Notes: generated from the letters alone by a model not told the origin. A stretch of DNA of 64,000 nucleotides from Chloroflexota bacterium (GCA_050258095.1 JBLMYD010000038.1:3594-67593); one strand, 5' to 3'; positions 3,087 through 56,614 are shown, counted from the first letter of the stretch. Program-made: numbers and translations.

Positions 3087-3374
3087 GTGAGCGAGCACCG
3101 TCACATCCCCGAGCCCGGCGAGCTGGTCTACCGGCCCCGCCCCTCGTGGGCGCCGGCGATCTTCGCCTTCGCGATCGCCCTCGCCGTCTGCGGCATCTTC
3201 ATCAGCTTCATGGTGCCCGGCTGGATCTACTCGATCATCGGCGGCGTCGTCGCCCTCTTCGCCCTGCGCAGCATGGTCAAGGAGGCGAGCAGCTCCTACT
3301 TCAAGCTCCCGCGCACGCAGAAGGCGCGCGGCGCTGTGCTCCCGGTCGAACCGATTTCCCCGCCGCAGGGCTGA
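3087..3374 (+). CDS. Small 2-TM membrane protein (about 95 aa), function unknown
   Basis: An in-frame GTG at 3087 lies within ORF 3012..3374. Two hydrophobic helices (WAPAIFAFAIALAVCGIFISF, WIYSIIGGVVALFAL). I reject the N-terminal part of the track ORF because it overlaps the better-scoring micro-ORF frame. Confidence 0.5.
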   Translation: MSEHRHIPEPGELVYRPRPSWAPAIFAFAIALAVCGIFISFMVPGWIYSIIGGVVALFALRSMVKEASSSYFKLPRTQKARGAVLPVEPISPPQG

Positions 3375-3375
3375 A

Positions 3376-3777
3376 TCAGTCCGGCGTCATCCCGGAGGTG
3401 GCTCCGTCGGAGGTCCAGACGCGGACGATGTCGCGCATCGAGAGCACGCCGACGAGGTCCGGTCCCTCGTAGACGACGAGGTGGCGGATGCCGCGGCGCG
3501 ACATCTCGGCGGCGGCGCGCTCGAGGCTCCAGTCCGGCGAGGCCGCGATCACGCTGTCGCTCATGTGGTCGCCGACCCGCTCGGCGTCGGGATCCTCGCC
3601 GGCGCCCAGCGAGAGCAGCACGTCGCGCTCGGTGACGATCCGCGGCCCGGGCGTCTCGTCGTCGCTGACCAGAGCCGCCCCGGTCCCCTTCTCGGCCATC
3701 ATCCTCGCCGCCTCGCGCAGAGTGTGGCCCGGCCCCACGGTGAGGACCACCTCCGACATGCCATCCCGTACGAGCAT
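3376..3777 (-). CDS. CBS-domain pair protein
   Basis: 133 aa containing two CBS-like units (..VLTVGPGHTLREAARMM..IVTERDVL.. and ..SVIAASPDWSLERAAAEM..GIRHLVV..LVGVLSMRDIV). Confidence 0.8.
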   Translation of the reverse strand: MLVRDGMSEVVLTVGPGHTLREAARMMAEKGTGAALVSDDETPGPRIVTERDVLLSLGAGEDPDAERVGDHMSDSVIAASPDWSLERAAAEMSRRGIRHLVVYEGPDLVGVLSMRDIVRVWTSDGATSGMTPD

Positions 3778-4633: not shown

Positions 4634-5599
4634 ATGCGCGCCCGATACAGCATCTCACCGCGGCTCTACGCCACGGTCGCGCTGATCGCGCTGGTCGCCC
4701 TCGCGCTGATCGTGCTCACGGGGGCAGCCGTGCGCCTCACCGGCTCGGGCCTGGGCTGCCCGGACTGGCCCAAGTGCTACGGCCAGACCGTGCCGCCGCT
4801 CAACACCCACGCCGTGATCGAGTTCGCCAACCGAGTCTTCACCGGCTTCGTCGGCTTCGCCGTGATCGCGGCCAGCGTGCTCGCCTGGTTCCGCAAGCCG
4901 TTCCGCGGGCACCTGGCGCTGTTCGGCGCGCTGCTGCCGCTGGGAGTGATCGGCCAGGCGATCCTCGGCGGCCTCGTCGTCCGCCACCACCTCGCCCCGG
5001 GCCTGGTGATGAGCCACTTCATCCTCTCGATGCTGCTGCTCGACGCCGCCTTCGCGCTCGCCTGGTGCGCGCGCTACGAACCGACCGACCGCCGCCGCTC
5101 CGGCGACCGGCTCGGCGTCTGGGCCGTGCGAGCGCTGATCCCGTTCGGCCAGCTGACGATCCTGGCGGGGACGATCGCGACCGCCTCCGGGCCCCACGCC
5201 GGCGCCCACGCCGGCCAGCTGGTGCGCCGCTTCCGCTTCGAGGGCGCCGACACGCTCGAATGGGTCGTCCAGCGGCACGCGGCGATCGCGACCGTCTTCG
5301 GCCTCGCCGCGATAGCCGTCTGGCTCCTCCTGCGGCGCCCGGGCGGCGACGACCGCGCCACCAGGCCCCTGGCCGTGGTGATCGGCCTGCTCGCCCTGCA
5401 GGGCGTCGTCGGCGGCGTCCAGTGGTTCCTCGAACTGCCGACGGAGATCGTCTGGGCCCACGTCGCCCTGGCGACGATCACCTGGCTGGCGATGCTGTGG
5501 ACGGTGGCGACGGCGGGGCGTTTGGAACCGAGAGTCAGCCCAGGTGCGTCACGAGTAGAGCGCCTGCCACTGCAAGAAGCGCAAGAGACAGGCGCGTGA
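4634..5599 (+). CDS. ctaA: Heme A synthase (COX15/CtaA family)
   Basis: The in-frame ATG at 4634 gives MRARYSISPRLYATVALIALV..LTGSGLGCPDWPKCYG.., the typical CtaA N-terminus, with 8 predicted TM helices. The Arg-rich 5' part of ORF 4028.. is rejected. Confidence 0.85.
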   Translation: MRARYSISPRLYATVALIALVALALIVLTGAAVRLTGSGLGCPDWPKCYGQTVPPLNTHAVIEFANRVFTGFVGFAVIAASVLAWFRKPFRGHLALFGALLPLGVIGQAILGGLVVRHHLAPGLVMSHFILSMLLLDAAFALAWCARYEPTDRRRSGDRLGVWAVRALIPFGQLTILAGTIATASGPHAGAHAGQLVRRFRFEGADTLEWVVQRHAAIATVFGLAAIAVWLLLRRPGGDDRATRPLAVVIGLLALQGVVGGVQWFLELPTEIVWAHVALATITWLAMLWTVATAGRLEPRVSPGASRVERLPLQEAQETGA

Positions 5600-16273: not shown

Positions 16274-16392
16274 GGGATGGCCGTCGGTAGGTCTTCCTCA
16301 CTCGCCTGACTGGCTGGGTCGGCAACCGCCGTCCGAGGGCCTTTCCCGGCCAGCGGCGCAAAACGTTCGGAAGACCTACCGACGTCCATCCC
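16274..16392. repeat. Long hairpin element 16-a: 24-bp stem (1 mismatch) enclosing a 71-nt conserved core
   Basis: Left arm 16274-16297 is gggatggccgtcggtaggtcttcc and right arm 16369-16392 is ggaagacctaccgacgtccatccc. The core is about 75-80% identical to the reverse complement of the core of element 16-b. Confidence 0.8.
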
Positions 16393-16490
16393 TTGAAAGC
16401 TCAGGCACGCGAGACCCCAGCGCGCGGGCCGGGACACTCGCCAGCACGCCTCGTTGAGGGAGCTTTCGAAGGACGGGGCGGTTTCGCCGT

Positions 16491-16604
16491 CCGGATGTCG
16501 GGTGTCCCTGCGAACGTTTTGTGCCGCTGGCCCGGCGACATCTCTCGGACGGCTCCAACCGATCCAGCCAGTTAGGCAAGTGAGCAGGGGCACCCGACAT
16601 CCGG
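16491..16604. repeat. Long hairpin element 16-b: 20-bp stem (1 T-G) enclosing a 74-nt core, inverted copy of 16-a
   Basis: Left arm 16491-16510 is ccggatgtcgggtgtccctg and right arm 16585-16604 is caggggcacccgacatccgg. The reverse complement of the core aligns with core 16-a (tcact.gcct.actggctgg.tcgg...gccgtccgag...ccagcggc.caaaacgttc). Confidence 0.8.
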
Positions 16605-29663: not shown

Positions 29664-29739
29664 GGGATGCCTGATGCCCTTCCCCAAACGCTCGGCGGGA
29701 GCCTCGCTTGAGTGTTTGGGGAGGGGCATCAGGCATCCC
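29664..29739. repeat. Long hairpin H1: 30-bp stem (two T-G pairs), 16-nt loop
   Basis: Left arm gggatgcctgatgcccttccccaaacgctc, loop ggcgggagcctcgctt, right arm gagtgtttggggaggggcatcaggcatccc. Lies in the glmM-glmS spacer. Confidence 0.85.
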
Positions 29740-29800
29740 TTGACAGGGCACAAGCTTCGTCAAGCTTGATGCCGGCTTCGCGACCTGGGCTTCCCCGCGG

Positions 29801-29872
29801 TGTGTGGCCTTGGGGGTCCTTCCCCAGGAACTCCCGCGAAGCGGCCTGGGGAAGGACCCCCAAGGCCACACA
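29801..29872. repeat. Long hairpin H2: 28-bp perfect stem, 16-nt loop
   Basis: Left arm tgtgtggccttgggggtccttccccagg, loop aactcccgcgaagcgg, right arm cctggggaaggacccccaaggccacaca. Ends 9 nt from the glmM stop. Confidence 0.85.
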
Positions 29873-29880
29873 GAACTGGC

Positions 29881-31221
29881 TCAGGACAGCTCTCGGCGCA
29901 CGATCGCGACCAGCCGCTCGCAGACGGCCTCAGCCTCCTCGGCGCTCGGCGCCTCCGCCATCACCCTGACGAGGGGCTCGGTGCCGGACGGGCGCAGCAG
30001 GACCCGACCGCGCCCCTCGAGCGCGGCCCCCTCGCTCTCGACCGCCTCCCAGACCGCGGTCGCGCCGGCGATCGCGTCGCGGTCGGCGACCTCGACGTTG
30101 ACCAGGGTCTGCGGCAGCTTCTCCATCGGCGCCGCCGCCTCCAGCCCGTTGCCGTCGAGCTCGCGCATCGTCGCCAGCGCGGCGGCGATGCCGTCGCCGG
30201 TCGCGGCGAAGCGGGTGTCGATGATGTGGCCCGACTGCTCGCCGCCCAGCGACCAGCCGCGCTCGCGCAACTCGTCGAGCACGTAGCGGTCGCCGACCTT
30301 GGTCGTCGCGACCTCGATCCCGGCCCCCGCCATCGCCTTGTGGAAACCGTAGTTGCTCATCACGGTGACGGCGATGCCGCCGTCCAGCTCGCCGCGGGCG
30401 GCCATGCCGCGGCCGATCAGGGCGATCAGCTCGTCGCCGTCGTGCGTCCGGCCCGTCCCGTCGACGGCGAGGACGCGGTCGCCGTCGCCGTCGAAGGCGA
30501 AGCCGATCGTCGCCTCGGACCCGGCGATCGCGCTCGCCAGCGTGGCGAGGTCGGTCGAGCCGCAGCCGTCGTTGATGTTGCGCCCGTCGGGCTCGGCGGC
30601 GAGCGTCTCGACCTCGGCCCCGAGCCGCTCGAAGATCGCCGGCGCGGCGCGGAACGTGGCGCCGTTGGCGCAGTCGAGCATCACCCGCCGACCGGAGAGA
30701 TCGAGCGGGAAGTGCGCCTCTAGCGCGCGCAGGTAGTCCTCGAGGCCGCCGTCCAGCTCCCGCACCCGCCCGGGTGCTGTCGCCATTTCATCCGCATCGC
30801 GGTCGAGATGACGACCGCGGTCGGGGAGGTGGGACTCGATCCGCGCCTCGGTCGCGTCGTCGAGCTTGGTCCCCTGTGCCGAGAAGAACTTGATGCCGTT
30901 GTCGCCGTAGGGATTGTGGGAGGCGGAGACGACGACGGCGAGGTCGAGCCCGAGGCGCTTGACGAGGATCGCCGCGGCCGGCGTCGGCAGGACGCCGCCG
31001 AGCAGCGCGTCGCCGCCGCCCGCCGCGATGCCGGCGGCGAGGGCGGACTCGAGCATCGGGCCGGACTCGCGCGTGTCGCGCACGATCAACACCTGCGGCC
31101 GCGGCGGGGCCAGCGAGGCGACTGCGGCGCGTCCCAACGAGGTCGCCAGCTCCGCAGTCAGGAAGGTGCCGACCTCTCCTCGGACCCCGTCGGTTCCGAA
31201 GAGCTTTCGCTCCGCCGTCAC
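29881..31221 (-). CDS. glmM: Phosphoglucosamine mutase
   Basis: 446 aa with FGTDGVRG and the phosphoserine loop SASHNPYGDNGIK. Confidence 0.95.
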   Translation of the reverse strand: MTAERKLFGTDGVRGEVGTFLTAELATSLGRAAVASLAPPRPQVLIVRDTRESGPMLESALAAGIAAGGGDALLGGVLPTPAAAILVKRLGLDLAVVVSASHNPYGDNGIKFFSAQGTKLDDATEARIESHLPDRGRHLDRDADEMATAPGRVRELDGGLEDYLRALEAHFPLDLSGRRVMLDCANGATFRAAPAIFERLGAEVETLAAEPDGRNINDGCGSTDLATLASAIAGSEATIGFAFDGDGDRVLAVDGTGRTHDGDELIALIGRGMAARGELDGGIAVTVMSNYGFHKAMAGAGIEVATTKVGDRYVLDELRERGWSLGGEQSGHIIDTRFAATGDGIAAALATMRELDGNGLEAAAPMEKLPQTLVNVEVADRDAIAGATAVWEAVESEGAALEGRGRVLLRPSGTEPLVRVMAEAPSAEEAEAVCERLVAIVRRELS

Positions 31222-31231
31222 CAGGGACGCC

Positions 31232-32143
31232 TCAGCGCTTCGAGAACTGCGGCCGCTTGCGGGCCTTCTTAAGCCCGGCCTTGCGGCGCTCCTTGGCCCG
31301 GGCGTCGCGGGTCAGGAAGCCGCGCCGCTTGAGCTCGCCCCGCAGCTCCGGATCGACCTTGGTCAGGGCGCGGGCGATGCCGTGGCGGACGGCGCCGGCC
31401 TGGCCGCTGATGCCGCCACCGTGGACGCGCACGCGCACGTCGACGGTCTTCTCGTAGCCGGTGGTCGTCAGCGGCTGGCGCACCGTCGTCTGGTGCAACG
31501 GCCGCGGGAAGAACTCCGCCAGCTCGCGCTTGTTGACTTCGATCTTGCCCTTGCCGGGCAGCACGGTCACGCGGGCGATCGAGGTCTTGCGCTTGCCGGT
31601 CGCCAGGTAGCGGGCGTCGCCTTCCATCTTCGCCGGCGTGCGACTAGCCGCCTTCGGCTCCTCCTCGGCCTCGCCGACCAGAGCCGCCTCGCGCTGGGCC
31701 CGCTCTTCCTCTTCGGCTTCGATCCGCGCCTGCTCCTCGGCGCTGAGCGGCCGCTCCTCGGGCTCGACCGCGATCGGCTCCAGATCCGCCCCCGGAATCA
31801 CATCCTTCTTCTTCTCCTCCACCTCGGGCTTCTCGGGCGCGGGCTTCTTAGCCCTCTCCTCGGCATCGGACTCCTCCTCCGCCACAGGCTCCCCCTCATC
31901 CGCCCCGGACCCCTCAGCTTCTCCCTCCTCAGACTCCTCGACGACTTCACCTTCGGCCTCAGCCGCCTCGACCTGGGATTCCTCAGCCGCCTCTCCCGCG
32001 GGTGGTGTCGAGGATGGGGAGTCGCCCGCAGCTTGCGAGGACGACTCGCCATCCTCGGCGACAGGACCCGCGGGCGAATCCGCTGGTCCCTCAACCGAAG
32101 CCTCGTCCTGCCCCGAAGTCTCTTTGCTCTCGTCGTCGATCAA
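31232..32143 (-). CDS. rpsI: 30S ribosomal protein S9, possibly with a 172-aa acidic N-terminal extension
   Basis: The C-terminal 130 aa are canonical (..[45 protein letters not shown]). TTG 32143 overlaps the rplM TGA (TTGA). An alternative internal ATG lies at 31627. Confidence 0.85.
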
Positions 32144-32586: not shown

Positions 32587-32630
32587 GATAGGGGACTCCG
32601 GCCGCAGGCGTGGCTATACTGCCGCGCCAG

Positions 32631-32772
32631 CAACGCCGAGTCCCGGCTGCATGGATGGCCGGGGGCGGAGGAACCGAAGGAGCCGTTGCAGGTTCCGGGG
32701 GCGAATGGGCCGAACAGAGCCCTAGCGCATCTCTTTCAGCGCGAGCCCGACAGCTAACTCCGTAGGCGAATC
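32631..32772 (+). promoter_or_regulatory. c-di-AMP riboswitch (ydaO-yuaA motif) in the leader of the M23 peptidase gene
   Basis: The 3' half GCCCGACAGCUAACUCCGUAGGCGAAUCGAAAGAGAGGG resembles my recollection of the B. subtilis ydaO element (CCCGAAUCCGUCAGCUAACCUCGUAAGCGUUCGAAAGGAGAGG). G-rich segments GGGGGCGGAGGAACC and GGGGGCGAAUGGG sit where GCGGGGGACCCA and GGGGUGAAUCC occur. CGCC/GGCG forms a closing helix. A TATACT -10-like hexamer lies at 32615-32620. The element ends about 15 nt before the GTG start. Confidence 0.65.
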
Positions 32773-32786
32773 GAAAGAGAGGGCAC

Positions 32787-33725
32787 GTGGCGCTTAAGTT
32801 TGCCGGGCCTTGGTCAAAGGGAAGCTCGATCTTCATCGCAGCGTCGGTGGCGCTGCTGGCTGCCGCCTGCACTGCGTCGGCGGTTACCGGCGGCGCGCCG
32901 ACGTCGGCCGGCTCGCCGCCGTCCCCGGGCAGCCAGAGCGGCTCTCCCAGCGAAGACCCCAGCGCCGGCGCGCTGCGCCTGATCCTGGCCAGGACGACTC
33001 CCCGCAGGTCCTTCTACTACGGCTATCGCTACCCCAAGCTCGTCTTCGAAATCGCCAGCACCCAGAGCCAGAACGACCTGCGCATCGACGTCGTCGACGC
33101 GGCCGGGGAAAGCGTCCGCACCTTCTTCCGCAACGACGTGCCGCCGCGCGAACGCGTTCGCATCCGCTGGGACGGAACCGGCAGCAGCGGCCGCCCGGCC
33201 CCGAACGGTCGCTACACCTTCCAGGTCTCCTCGCAGGCGGGCGCGGTGGCGACCCAGTCCGCGACTCCCTCGCAAGCGATCGATCCCCGCTTCGCCTTCT
33301 TCGGATACGCGTTCCCGGTCCTCGGCCCGCACGACTTCGGCGGCGCGGCAGCCCGCTTCGGCGCGCCGCGCGCGGGTCACACCCACCAGGGCCAGGACAT
33401 CATGGCGCGCTGCGGGCAGATCGAGGTCGCCGCTCGGGGCGGCAAAGTCCAGTACGCGGGCTACGAGGCCAACGCCGGCAACTACATCGTCATCGACGGC
33501 AAGGGCACCGGCTTCGACTTCATGTACGCGCACCTGGCGCGGCCCTCGCCGCTGAAGACCGGCGACCCGGTCCGCACCGGCCAGCCGATCGGCATCGTCG
33601 GCCAGACCGGCGACGCGACCGCCTGCCACCTCCACTTCGAGATGTGGACCGCTCCCGGCTGGTACGAGGGCGGCAGCCCGATCGACCCGCTTCCCTACCT
33701 GCAGCGCTGGGACCGCTACAGCTGA
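32787..33725 (+). CDS. M23 (LytM-type) metallopeptidase lipoprotein with an Ig-like N-terminal domain
   Basis: Signal/lipobox ..LLAAACTAS, then RIRWDGTGSSGRPAPNGRYTF (FlgD-Ig-like). M23 motifs HTHQGQD (HxxxD) and CHLHFE (HxH). Confidence 0.85.
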   Translation: MALKFAGPWSKGSSIFIAASVALLAAACTASAVTGGAPTSAGSPPSPGSQSGSPSEDPSAGALRLILARTTPRRSFYYGYRYPKLVFEIASTQSQNDLRIDVVDAAGESVRTFFRNDVPPRERVRIRWDGTGSSGRPAPNGRYTFQVSSQAGAVATQSATPSQAIDPRFAFFGYAFPVLGPHDFGGAAARFGAPRAGHTHQGQDIMARCGQIEVAARGGKVQYAGYEANAGNYIVIDGKGTGFDFMYAHLARPSPLKTGDPVRTGQPIGIVGQTGDATACHLHFEMWTAPGWYEGGSPIDPLPYLQRWDRYS

Positions 33726-44109: not shown

Positions 44110-44513
44110 TCTCCGGCCCGCCCGTCGCCGCCGGCCGCAAGGTCGCGCAGAACCGAGCGCATGTCGAAGAAGAGCAGCGAGGCGAGCGCGAAGCGGTCGG
44201 TCACCGCGACCGCAGCCAGGCCCGCGTGCCGGAGCGCGAAGACCTCGCCCTGCTCGGTGGCGACGTGGACCTGCTCGACCGGCTCCTCCCCCGCCCGGTC
44301 GGCGACGTCGAACAGGGCGGAGGCGTCCTCGCGCCAACGGTCGGCATGACCGCTGGCCGCCAGCACCTCGCCGTCCGCGTCGAGAATCGCCCCACCGCGC
44401 AGGTCGGGGGACATCTCGTCCAGGTAGGCGAGCGCCGTCGCCGCTGCACCGCTCGTCTCACCGTCGGCCATCTCGGCCAAAATACCGGCCGGTGTCCCTG
44501 GCCCGTGCCTCAT
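44106..44513 (-). CDS. Roadblock/LC7 (MglB-like) domain protein
   Basis: ..LRGGAILDADGEVLAASG..VHVATEQGEVFALRHAGLAAVAVTDRFALASLLFFDMRSVLRDL... The start is ATG 44513 or ATG 44471 (MADGETSG). Confidence 0.6.
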   Translation of the reverse strand: MRHGPGTPAGILAEMADGETSGAAATALAYLDEMSPDLRGGAILDADGEVLAASGHADRWREDASALFDVADRAGEEPVEQVHVATEQGEVFALRHAGLAAVAVTDRFALASLLFFDMRSVLRDLAAGGDGRAGE

Positions 44514-44641
44514 GGATCGTCGTCGTCTCGGTCTGCGCGATCGCGGCAGTCGCCTTCGCGCTCAGCGACTACACCGGCTACGCGATCACGGTCGTCGCCG
44601 TCGGCCTCGCCGCGGCGGTGAATTTGCTGCCCAGCCCGTAG
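44492..44641 (+). CDS. Candidate 49-aa 2-TM protein
   Basis: Runs GTG 44492 to TAG 44639-44641: (M)SLARASWIVVVSVCAIAAVAFALSDYTGYAITVVAVGLAAAVNLLPSP. About 45 of 49 codons end in G/C. Not in the ORF track. Confidence 0.4.
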   Translation: MSLARASWIVVVSVCAIAAVAFALSDYTGYAITVVAVGLAAAVNLLPSP

Positions 44642-44656
44642 AGCAGAAAAAAGGCC

Positions 44657-44792
44657 GGCGGGTGCGCCTCTCCGGAAATTGATGTCGCACGCGCCTGCGG
44701 CGCTTAGCGACAGATGAGGAGCGCGGCCTGCGGCCGCGCGGAATCGGATTGCATAGGCCGCTTCGCTACATTTCCGGAGAGGCGCACCCGCC
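44657..44792. repeat. Long hairpin element 44-a: 23-bp perfect stem enclosing a 90-nt structured core
   Basis: Arms ggcgggtgcgcctctccggaaat / atttccggagaggcgcacccgcc. The core contains two internal stem-loops (gtcgc.c.gcgcc-tgc-ggcgc..gcgac and gcgcggcc-tgc-ggccgcgc). Confidence 0.85.
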
Positions 44793-44923
44793 AGCCTCTC
44801 GATGCTCCACAGCTATCGAAAGCTCTTACCCGAAGCGGCGGCGTCGGTTTGATGCTCCTCAAAGAGCTTGTGGAGTCCTGACGCCGATTCCGCAGCTCGT
44901 GCGTCTCTGGGAAATGTGTTGAG

Positions 44924-45066
44924 GGGGAGCCTGGTCGTCCTCCAGGCGAATGTCGCGAAGCGGCCTATGCAATCCGGTGTTTGCGCGGCGAAGCCGCGCT
45001 GAAGATTCGGCGCAAAGGCCGAAGGCCGTGCGCCATCAATTCGACTGGAGGACGACCAGGCTCCCC
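44924..45066. repeat. Long hairpin element 44-b: 22-bp perfect stem enclosing a 99-nt core, inverted copy of 44-a
   Basis: Arms ggggagcctggtcgtcctccag / ctggaggacgaccaggctcccc. The reverse complement of the core aligns with core 44-a, including an identical 22-mer cggattgcataggccgcttcgc. The internal stem-loops are kept by compensatory changes. Confidence 0.85.
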
Positions 45067-45074
45067 ACCTTCCG

Positions 45075-45986
45075 CTACCCAGCCCGGAAGGGGCCGGAGC
45101 GCTCGTCGGCCGGGTCGCGCAGCGAGCTCTCGGGCTCGGCGTGGATCAGGACTTCGGCGTTCGGGACCGCGGCCTCGATCGAGTCGCGCAGCGCGTGGGT
45201 CAGCTCATGAGCCCGCTCGAGGCTCGTGCCGGCGCGGTACTGGACGTGGAGGTCGATGTAGCGGCGGCGGCCCGCCCGGCGGGCGCGCAGCTTGTGGTAG
45301 CCGACGACCTCCGGCGTGCGCGCCGCCGAGATCGCGGCCTCGATCCGGTCCATCTCCTCGCCGGGGAGGGCCTCGTCGACGAGCACGCCCGAGGAGTGGC
45401 GGACGATCCTGATCCCGGCCGTGACGATCGCCCCGGCGACGACCAGGGCCGTGATCGAGTCGAAGGCGGCGTTGCCGGTGGCGGCGACCAGCGCCAGGCC
45501 GAGCAGGACGCCGGCCGAGGTCATCGCGTCGGCGCGCAGGTGGGCGGCGTCGCCGGCGAGGGCGGGAGATTCGTGGGCGCGCGCCTGCCGCGAGAGCACC
45601 GAGGAGACGACGAGGTTGGCGAGCACCGAGAAGCCCATCACGGCGATGCCGGCGCCGAGGGTCTCGACTTCGGCACCGACGACGAGCCGGTGCGTGGCCT
45701 CATAGACGATGATCCCGGCGCCGACGAGGATCAGCAGGCCCTCGATCGTTGCCGCCAGGCTCTCGACCTTCTCGTGACCGTAGGGGTGCTCGGCGTCGGC
45801 CGGCTCGTCGGCCTTGCGCACCGAGGCGAAGGCGACGACGGAGGCGACGAGGTCGATCAGCGAGTGGATCGCCTCGGTGAGGATCGCGATCGAGCCGGTG
45901 ACTGCGGCGGCGGCCAGCTTGATCGCGATCAGCAAGGCATTGGAAGCGATCGATAGGGCCGCCGCCCCACTCTTGGTGCGGATCAT
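45075..45986 (-). CDS. Cation diffusion facilitator (CDF) family metal efflux transporter
   Basis: 303 aa with 6 TM helices. ..ALSIASNALLIAIKLAAA..HSLIDLVAS.. and a C-terminal cytoplasmic domain. Confidence 0.9.
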   Translation of the reverse strand: MIRTKSGAAALSIASNALLIAIKLAAAAVTGSIAILTEAIHSLIDLVASVVAFASVRKADEPADAEHPYGHEKVESLAATIEGLLILVGAGIIVYEATHRLVVGAEVETLGAGIAVMGFSVLANLVVSSVLSRQARAHESPALAGDAAHLRADAMTSAGVLLGLALVAATGNAAFDSITALVVAGAIVTAGIRIVRHSSGVLVDEALPGEEMDRIEAAISAARTPEVVGYHKLRARRAGRRRYIDLHVQYRAGTSLERAHELTHALRDSIEAAVPNAEVLIHAEPESSLRDPADERSGPFRAG

Positions 45987-55858: not shown

Positions 55859-56614
55859 GTGCCCTGGGTCGAAACGGAATCGCTGAGCTTCTCGGCGCGC
55901 CACGACAGCGGCGACACGGCCTTCGCCGAGCGGACGCTCGACCGCATGGAGGAACTGCGGCTGCGACTGGAGGATCGCTTCGACTCCGTGCCGGGAGACA
56001 TCACGATCGTCGTCCACACCAGCCCCGCCTGGCTGGCGCTCGCCCACCCCTTCCTGCCGCTGGCGCGCTGGTCGGCAGCGCCGGCCGGCAGGCGCTACCT
56101 CGCCGGCTGGCCGATGGCGACCGAGCTGCACGTGCTCAACGACTCGCACAGCGAGAGACGGGCGGCGGGCGAGGACTCGCACGAGGCGCTGCGCGGGACG
56201 GCCGAGCGCCTCTACGCCCAGCTCGTGATCGCCGCCAACAACCCCCGGTTCCCGCCCTCCTGGACGCCGCGCCGCTTCGCCCGCTACCTGGCCTGGGCCT
56301 GGCTGATCGAAGGCGGCGCCCAGTACTTCTCCCGCCAGGTCGGCCTCTACCGCGCGGCCGTGATCCGGCGCCTGCGCGAGAGCGCCCGCCCCTCCTTCCC
56401 GCCCTCGCGCCGCGACGCGGTCATCCTCGGCGGCACGATCTTCGACCTGCTCGAGGCCGAACGCGGCCCCGACGCCTGCGAGCGCCTCGCCCTGCACATG
56501 CTCCCCGACGGCGCCGGCAGGACGCTCGAAGACGCATTCGAAGCCCCCATCGGCGAGATCGAGGATGCCTGGCGGGGGTATCTGCGCGATATCGCGCGCC
56601 CCAATCCGGGCTAA
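55859..56614 (+). CDS. Hypothetical protein
   Basis: GTG 55859 is the first start after the upstream stop. 251 aa: ..WLIEGGAQYFSRQ... No motif recognised. Confidence 0.45.
   Translation: MPWVETESLSFSARHDSGDTAFAERTLDRMEELRLRLEDRFDSVPGDITIVVHTSPAWLALAHPFLPLARWSAAPAGRRYLAGWPMATELHVLNDSHSERRAAGEDSHEALRGTAERLYAQLVIAANNPRFPPSWTPRRFARYLAWAWLIEGGAQYFSRQVGLYRAAVIRRLRESARPSFPPSRRDAVILGGTIFDLLEAERGPDACERLALHMLPDGAGRTLEDAFEAPIGEIEDAWRGYLRDIARPNPG

Follow-up and report, generated by a model that had tools for sequence, protein, structure and literature searches.

The 64,000-nt stretch of DNA analysed here (Chloroflexota bacterium, GCA_050258095.1 JBLMYD010000038.1:3594-67593; referred to below as the window) carries, between two convergent genes near 45 kb, a pair of inverted hairpin elements, A and B. 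On balance, the two are probably modules that together make up a single composite copy of a palindromic, dispersed DNA repeat that is non-coding, non-autonomous and mosaic, and that resembles either the repetitive extragenic palindromes (REP), bacterial interspersed mosaic elements (BIME) and REPINs or MITEs (miniature transposable elements with inverted repeats). The family is previously undescribed and, by the sampling done here, appears restricted to Solirubrobacterales, soil bacteria through whose genomes these folded DNA repeats are scattered; a keyword search of the literature found no repeat family described for this order. A preliminary description of the window had taken paired substitutions in A and B as the mark of a functional multi-stem RNA. 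The covariation is real, but the elements look like mobile, "junk-like" DNA rather than proven functional RNA.

A and B are separate hairpins, each folding on its own (positions in Table 1). As first described, the perfect 23-bp part of the stem of A begins at 44657 and encloses a 90-nt core, and the perfect 22-bp part of the stem of B yields a 99-nt core. Aligned as inverted copies, A (plus strand) and the reverse complement of B have 82% column identity with conserved cores, while their outer stems are unrelated in sequence yet each paired over a near-perfect 28 bp. The shared 22-mer, CGGATTGCATAGGCCGCTTCGC, is present at exactly two places in the window, 44745 (plus) and 44955 (minus), and none of 100 shuffles matched this. 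All four strands fold with z-scores of -7 to -10 relative to dinucleotide shuffles. The first inner hairpin is compensated between A and B (GTCGC/GCGAC vs GGCGC/GCGCC, and GCGCC/GGCGC vs GGCC/GGCC). Two details of the preliminary description did not hold. In the second inner hairpin, also listed there as compensated, GCGCGGCC-TGC-GGCCGCGC and GCGCGGC-TTC-GCCGCGC differ by one pair more or less, with no compensatory substitution, and the spacer, said to hold fragments of the core, gave no significant blastn match to either core. The spacer does resemble, at the level of motifs, the 3' tails found after such hairpins elsewhere in other genomes, although blastn found no significant similarity between it and the other loci.

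Copies of the family were collected in two ways. Searching one genome of each prokaryotic species with a core 18-mer (GGATTGCATAGGCCGCTT) gave matches at 52 loci, 48 of them from 27 Solirubrobacterales assemblies (Actinomycetota, Thermoleophilia), where as many as six fell in a single 3-Mb chromosome; the remaining four matches were in unrelated taxa, had no surrounding element and were read as chance. A covariance model, R1, was built from 46 copies and searched against 432 kb (the window and the 48 loci), a score of at least 84 bits defining a full copy. Of the 68 full copies recovered, 48 had been ascertained via the 18-mer (46 of them also seeds of R1) and 20 lacked it and were thus found independently of it. 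L-numbers below denote the 8-kb loci examined, 132 of which altogether were used for blastn. The earlier suggestion of a class of elements rather than a single oddity is borne out by these copies and by short-core and mini-hairpin relatives at 29.7 kb in the window. A distant-mode search of a plasmid collection gave no match to the family, and a degenerate core pattern gave one match among viral contigs, in low-G+C DNA without an element around it, which was likewise read as chance.

The copies are commonly paired. Twenty-two pairs were found, the window's own included, and all are tail-to-tail and 10 to 280 nt apart, like A and B. A type-I hairpin (the outer stem type of B), a tail region of 130 to 170 nt and an inverted type-II hairpin (that of A) also follow one another in L004, L011, L026, L028, L038 and L051, and at some loci the partner is a short-core or bare hairpin. 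Spacers between paired modules contain recurrent motifs, including A/T-rich islands despite a G+C content of 70%. With respect to genes, 54 of the 68 copies begin no more than 70 nt downstream of the stop codon of a co-oriented long open reading frame (ORF), and the units lie mostly between convergent genes.

Every Solirubrobacterales match has a common layout, consisting of a variable outer stem (P1) ending in ..GAAT/ATTC.., the motif GAATTGA, the hairpins P2 and P3 (GCGCGGC/GCCGCGC), ..CCGGATTGCATAGGCCGCTTCGCGACATTC and the 3' arm. The invariant unpaired motifs of the modules are GAATTGA, GATTGCAT and CGCTTCGCGAC; GATTGCAT is unchanged in all 20 partner copies that were not selected via the 18-mer. 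The outer arms are the most variable part and the interior core the most conserved, and conservation continues beyond the arms into the 3' tail. P2 is wholly different in sequence among subfamilies (TGTCGCACGCGC.., GCACCGCGCG.., CACCCCAAGAGC.., CCACCACGCGC..), and P1 and P2 types are common to the copies within one genome and different between genomes. In L046 (4145-4308), L051 (5534-5698), L048 (6307-6470) and L044 (7657-7817), the outer arms on the 5' and 3' sides are of different subtypes and show poor pairing, which points to exchange among copies by recombination or conversion. The core is non-coding, because indels among copies are not multiples of three: the length between GATTGCAT and P4 differs by 3, 4 or 5 nt. 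A coding reading of the conserved ATG in GAATGTCGCG was rejected, given non-triplet indels just downstream.

Damaged copies were also seen. One at about 7520 in L050 has its 3' arm broken or cut short by unrelated sequence, and another (L020, 5635-5740) has no 5' arm and begins right after the stop of a phosphate-transporter-like ORF. In L023, a canonical-looking intrinsic terminator (AACCCCGGTCGGGTTTTT, about 5040-5070, minus orientation) follows a single type-II module, at the position taken in the orthologous L034 by an inverted partner.

The 433-nt block between the two genes is an insertion dispensable to both, since it is missing at nearly all orthologous loci, where the stops simply overlap or the gaps are mostly short. 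We compared 82 loci at this efflux-gene site, 80 of them from metagenomes with efflux orthologues 76-93% identical. R1 matched only one of the 80 (L099); both flanks of L037, which came from the genome scan, are orthologous too. Counting any member of the family, five of the 82 loci are filled and 77 lack the element. In about 29, the convergent stops overlap by four bases (..GGC TAG GGA.., both in CTAG; [C/T]TA[G/A]) with zero intergenic DNA, and most of the others have gaps below 60 nt. Full modules are present at the site only in the window, L099 (240 nt) and L037 (320 nt), type-I copies orthologous to element B following the same gene in the latter two, while L056 (269 nt) and L069 (273 nt) carry a composite of mini-hairpin and short-core hairpin. 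Filled and empty loci are interleaved in the efflux-protein tree: the nearest relatives, L053 and L054 (93% amino acid identity), are empty, and the filled L056 is 98.7% identical to L053/L054. The check for presence or absence in relatives, proposed with the preliminary description, therefore gave both filled and empty orthologous sites. Other orthologous sets vary in the presence of the pair partner (L006 vs L013/L045/L047; L023 vs L034; L012 vs L022), arm remnants being left.

A covariation test on the alignment of the 68 copies was statistically overwhelming at the level of the family, and the multi-helix architecture is real. Standard pairs fill 95.8% of cells, compared with 73% after shuffling and 35-50% with slid partners; both sides change in 39 of 43 pairs (26 of 27 in P1), and 0 of 500 shuffles reached the observed covariation score. 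The small hairpin P4 (GC-CGC-TTC-GCG-AC, with variants CGCC/GGCG, GGCC/GGCC and GCAC/GTGC) is a plausible, weakly supported fourth helix. An alternative fold returned by RNAalifold, in which the 22-mer pairs with P3 in its 5' half, is not favoured; the compensated P3 variants in L005 and L023 keep the local hairpin.

Stepwise compensation in RNA normally passes through G.U and favours transition-type exchanges. Here the pairs are almost purely Watson-Crick, with 22 G.U against 38 A.C among 2857 cells (1729 Watson-Crick, 21 G.U and 35 A.C in P1 alone), and 355 of the 596 compensated cells are of transversion type (for example G-C to C-G, which has no wobble intermediate) compared with 241 of transition type. 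Hairpin F, a derivative that has lost its core, still pairs at 28 of 28 positions. The pattern fits a DNA palindrome in which one arm is re-templated from the other and does not look RNA-like. Template switching is reported to create and maintain perfect stems (PMC8794818), and compensatory changes are common in REPIN hairpins, which are proposed to move as single-stranded DNA (PMC3116915). The strong covariation in this family is probably a DNA-level effect, and covariation alone is therefore no proof of a functional RNA. Of the original argument, the covariation itself stands; the step from it to a functional multi-stem RNA is not supported, in view of the scarcity of G.U pairs, the excess of transversions, the failure to detect an Rfam family, promoter or U-tract terminator, and the missing block at orthologues.

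We consider it unlikely that the elements are instead a functional structured RNA, transcribed with the upstream gene as a cis-acting domain of its 3' untranslated region (UTR) or released as a small RNA, and copied because it is useful. Its possible roles include a terminator or insulator, an RNase III processing site, and a four-way junction that binds protein or is ribozyme-like. The very strong covariation across four helices and the unpaired nucleotides that stay invariant at the junction are what such an RNA would have, and the fold z-scores, the placement of most copies shortly after co-oriented stops and the persistence of the element, with compensated stems, at orthologous positions across species all fit it. 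Unrelated hairpins replace P2 at the same position, so that some hairpin seems to be required there. However, the copies show no wobble signature and mostly transversion-type double changes, a perfect helix of 25-28 bp is atypical for stable functional RNAs, and core-less derivatives keep perfect stems. Orientation relative to genes is uninformative for tail-to-tail pairs or for copies between convergent genes, and among the many orthologous loci without the element the roughly 29 with overlapping stops have no 3' UTR of any kind. A promoter and terminator consensus scan found no sigma-70-type promoter or U-tract terminator, and no terminator-like site in 44400-45300. Comparison with Rfam, suggested earlier as a check, also gave A and B no family: at gathering thresholds the only match in the whole window was a cyclic di-AMP (c-di-AMP) riboswitch, and at E up to 10 the A/B region drew only generic microRNA models of long hairpins, which scored 10-29 bits where their thresholds are 73-268.

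For the dispersed DNA repeat that we favour, the following scheme can be proposed. A module comprises a drifting, near-perfect P1 palindrome (22-28 bp), a conserved junction core (P2, P3 and probably P4) and a 3' tail, and modules occur singly or tail-to-tail, giving a mosaic like that of BIMEs built from REPs. The unit has probably spread to many unrelated gene 3' ends, entering here a zero-length junction of overlapping convergent stops, with later internal deletions decaying it to short-core and bare hairpins. Because the unpaired junction motifs are the most conserved features, the junction core rather than the termini would be what a putative trans-acting enzyme recognises, probably as a folded single strand by analogy with REP/RAYT and IS200/IS605 systems. 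The arms could be kept complementary by template switching, by correction within the palindrome and/or by selection for a single-stranded DNA hairpin; selection on RNA is not a likely cause of their perfection. On read-through from the upstream gene, the 3' end of the mRNA would gain a 25-bp duplex from each module, which could block exonucleases or attract RNase III, presumably as a side effect. A bolder version, to which we give little credence as a whole, is an element type recognised via its folded four-way-junction core (GAATTGA, GATTGCAT and the small UUC hairpin), with arms free to drift if they remain paired, moved as a folded single strand by an enzyme so far linked to no repeat family, and colonising CTAG overlaps with duplication of TA so that both genes keep a stop.

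Several observations weigh against the dispersed-repeat reading. No transposase or other mobilising gene was found among the few ORFs examined, and no pair flanks an ORF in the 8-kb loci; a candidate transposase upstream of the 5'-truncated L020 copy was rejected, the ORF encoding a phosphate-transporter/PhoU-type protein. No target-site duplication or defined termini could be established, and the filler between stop codon and P1 (0-33 nt) is unrelated among the five filled loci. The alignment (A4) was fitted to the model and most of its copies were ascertained through the 18-mer, the comparison of G.U with A.C has limited power at 22 and 38 cells, and one conserved C.A mismatch in P4 would be a U.G wobble on the opposite strand. 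All five filled loci have a GGG-TAG left junction, and L056, L069 and L099 also have common synonymous variants in the right flank, so that a single old event is possible: rather than by repeated transposition, the site may have been filled by a single old haplotype, which homologous recombination then spread and which was remodelled later. Such remodelling may have included internal deletion to the mini and short-core forms and replacement of P2 by the prevailing type of the genome (the window vs L037 and L099). Finally, conservation across species at orthologous sites with compensated arms could equally reflect selection at the level of the host.

Movement by cut and paste offers another route, one that we judge distinctly improbable. 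The elements would then be MITEs, deletion derivatives of an insertion sequence (IS) of the DDE IS630/Tc1-mariner or IS5/IS427 type that inserts at TA or CTAG and duplicates TA, which would explain both their location at TAG stops and the entry into an overlapping CTAG with both genes keeping a stop. The elements are small, non-coding and multi-copy with inverted-repeat ends; the empty site reads ...GGC TAG GGA... and the five filled alleles all read ...TA|G...C|TA..., and the conserved 5' leader of one subfamily (GATGGTCGATTCCACGA...) begins directly after TA in 8 of 10 copies read by eye. CTAG is also about eight-fold depleted in the window (21 observed vs 173 expected from base composition), so that a CTAG-seeking element would be channelled to stop codons. 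On the other hand, flanking TA is confounded with obligatory stop codons, and TAG is not significantly enriched beside elements (29 TAG, 22 TGA and 3 TAA, against a background of 184, 205 and 32). On the side facing glmM, the related unit E/F has TGA but no TA, the presumed termini lack a conserved sequence, and no autonomous partner was found in the 8-kb loci. The conservation profile is also the reverse of that expected: conservation is lowest in the outer arms, although these would be the inverted repeats bound by the transposase, and highest in the interior core, and it runs past the 3' arm into the tail.

The last alternative, and a very unlikely one, is a host-domesticated DNA site, its palindromes acting in double-stranded or cruciform DNA between converging units as a gyrase or nucleoid-protein site or a topological barrier, roles of the kind proposed for the BIME-2 and RIB/RIP elements of Escherichia coli; covariation confined to Watson-Crick pairs, the usual position between convergent genes and the conserved spacer motifs with their A/T-rich islands would suit it, but one unit lies between tandem genes and most convergent junctions, in the window and at the orthologous loci, have overlapping stops and no such site.

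Among known systems, the closest organisation is that of REP, BIME and REPIN sequences of Proteobacteria, which are mobilised by RAYT, IS200-like Y1 transposases, with Correia-type MITEs next. Like the REP, BIME and REPIN sequences, the present family is extragenic and multi-copy with lineage-specific variants, is found at gene 3' ends and between convergent genes, has no coding capacity and no obvious target-site duplication, and includes singlets and truncated remnants. The tail-to-tail pairs recall the alternating orientation and recurrent linker motifs of BIMEs in organisation only, the sequences being unrelated, and long hairpins with frequent compensatory changes are shared with REPINs (PMC3116915). 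The differences are equally clear. A module measures about 146 nt plus tail rather than the 20-40 nt of a REP; the core is conserved and the closing stem variable, whereas REPINs have conserved ends and a variable spacer; and two inverted modules fold separately, not together. No GTAG/CGTC tag could be established, the GTAG upstream of P1 in some copies coinciding with TAG stops, no RAYT was identified among the few ORFs examined in the 8-kb loci, and the host is an actinobacterial order.

Correia elements of Neisseria and the ERIC/RU-1, RUP and Nezha MITEs are similar in being non-coding, dispersed, located near genes and 100-450 bp long, and in having inverted-repeat arms of about 26 bp that form a long hairpin when transcribed; insertion polymorphism between relatives is a further MITE-type feature of the present family, and TA is a possible target, as for Correia and IS630-derived elements. 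In contrast to these, the arm sequences vary between copies while staying paired, the termini are undefined, target-site duplication is unproven, a structured interior and a tail outside the arms are conserved, there is no sequence similarity to any of them, and no parent insertion sequence was found in the 8-kb loci. Intrinsic terminators and the mycobacterial TRIT share the G+C-rich hairpin directly after stops, repeated at many genes. The present elements generally have no U-tract, their tails are not T-rich, their 22-28-bp stems enclose a 90-nt structured interior, and most orthologous genes lack them at their ends. Integron attC sites and the forked-hairpin attP of CTX phage offer a parallel for the folded-strand recognition proposed here, in that bases which are unpaired or at junctions are conserved while the stem sequence varies; unlike them, the elements have no R''/R' core sites or conserved RYYYAAC/GTTRRRY ends, their perfect stems have no extrahelical bases, and they stand isolated at gene ends, with no cassette arrays and no integrase/Xer context.

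The Solirubrobacterales are abundant in soil and barely studied, and the family is common there: it was found in 27 species-level genomes, and the window alone has three composite units of long-hairpin pairs, two of which (A/B and E/F) are demonstrably members. Its design is unusual in that the usual REP or MITE layout is reversed, with a conserved structured interior and variable, perfectly paired arms. The covariance model can be used to mask these repeats in screens for non-coding RNA and, in metagenomes from soil, to flag the 3' ends of genes and insertion polymorphisms between strains, and it provides a handle for finding the responsible enzyme.

The second family member in the window, E/F, lies between tandem rather than convergent genes. 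The loop of hairpin F (CCGCTTCGCGGGAGTT) retains the P4 motif and CCGCTTCGCG of full elements. Copies of the E type were found in 10 loci and of the F type in three, including L056 and L069 at the efflux-gene site. The third unit, C/D, is the pair of unrelated sequence that had been noted at 16.3 kb, and its existence was verified. Its inverted cores are about 85% identical and its outer stems differ while each remains paired, so the architecture is that of A/B with an unrelated sequence. No further copy of C/D was found in the 132 loci, either with the pattern CAGCGGCRCAAAACGTTC or by blastn of C and D, and a blastn search of the window with the spacer and with A, B, C and D as queries gave no copies beyond each pair.

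Table 1. Features of the window and their coordinates
Feature	Position	Strand	Details
Intergenic block	44642..45074	.	433 nt; composite unit of hairpin A, spacer and inverted hairpin B
Element A	44652..44797	+	'type II' outer stem; R1 151 bits, E 8e-32
A, P1 arms	44652-44679 / 44770-44797		28 nt, 96% complementary, 90 nt between
A, J1/2	44680-44682		TGA
A, P2 hairpin	44683-44712		
A, J2/3	44713-44720		
A, P3 hairpin	44721-44739		
A, conserved single-stranded segment	44740-44756		GGAATCGGATTGCATAG
A, P4 hairpin (small)	44757-44769		GCCGCTTCGCTAC
Spacer	44798..44923	.	126 nt; 3' tails of A (rightwards) and B (leftwards); small hairpins, AAGCTC/GAGCTT-type motifs
Element B	44924..45066	-	'type I' outer stem GGGGAGCCTGGTCGTCCTCCAG.CGAAT; R1 169 bits, E 7e-36
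B, P1 arms	45039-45066 / 44924-44951		28 nt, 96% complementary, 87 nt between
B, P2	45008-45035		
B, P3	44983-44999		
B, conserved 22-mer	44955-44976		
B, P4	44952-44964		
49-aa hydrophobic membrane ORF	44492..44641	+	VSLARASWIVVVSVCAIAAV...LLPSP-stop; convergent with efflux gene; translation, tblastn across orthologous loci; stop TAG at 44639-44641 bounds the block
Cation diffusion facilitator (efflux) gene	45075..45986	-	Pfam Cation_efflux E 2.5e-44, ZT_dimer E 1.1e-19; stop, CTA on the plus strand at 45075-45077, bounds the block
Pair C/D	16274..16604	.	between convergent genes, stops TAG ~16260 and CTA 16627
Hairpin C	16274-16392		arms 16274-16297/16369-16392
Hairpin D	16491-16604		arms 16491-16511/16584-16604
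Composite unit E/F	29664..29872	-	related to A/B; between glmM and glmS start; mini-hairpin F, spacer with AAGCTT motifs, short-core hairpin E
Hairpin E	29664-29739		30-bp stem
Hairpin F	29801-29872		28-bp perfect stem
glmM	29881-31311	-	identified by Pfam
glmS	start ~29636	-	presumed from its MCGIVGYVG N-terminus
c-di-AMP (ydaO/yuaA) riboswitch	32624-32782	+	75 bits vs gathering score 38

The 49-aa ORF upstream of A is shorter than the 50-aa ORF-length cutoff used and has no Pfam match; most of the 80 loci from metagenomes keep it beside the efflux gene. A 13-nt direct repeat flanking the block (44626-44638 and 45074-45086) was rejected as a target duplication; it consists of the PSP-stop coding end of this ORF and the reverse complement of the efflux-gene end (RAG-stop), and it is much weaker in empty alleles. 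Directly 5' of element A lies AAAAAA (44646-44651), so that the minus strand reads the A hairpin and then TTTTTT. Transcription reading through from the efflux gene could thereby meet an intrinsic terminator in copy A; such a run adjoins copy A only, the other copies being without it.

The convergent junction after the efflux gene is a general sink for inserted DNA. In other lineages, unrelated palindromes or hairpins of 46-212 nt stand just after the efflux stop (L062, L063, L066, L070, L076, L126 and L130), and insertions of 0.8-1.6 kb occupy the same junction in L068, L096 and L102.

The window has a G+C content of 70.4%, and the genome is highly compact. On a rough gene map, convergent stops abut or overlap at 3372-3379, 33716-33725 and 56611-56614 (CTGAATCAG, stops 1 nt apart; CTAA shared at 56611-56614), and the only long convergent intergenic regions called on it are those with hairpin pairs. 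The c-di-AMP riboswitch lies just upstream of an ORF starting near 32766.

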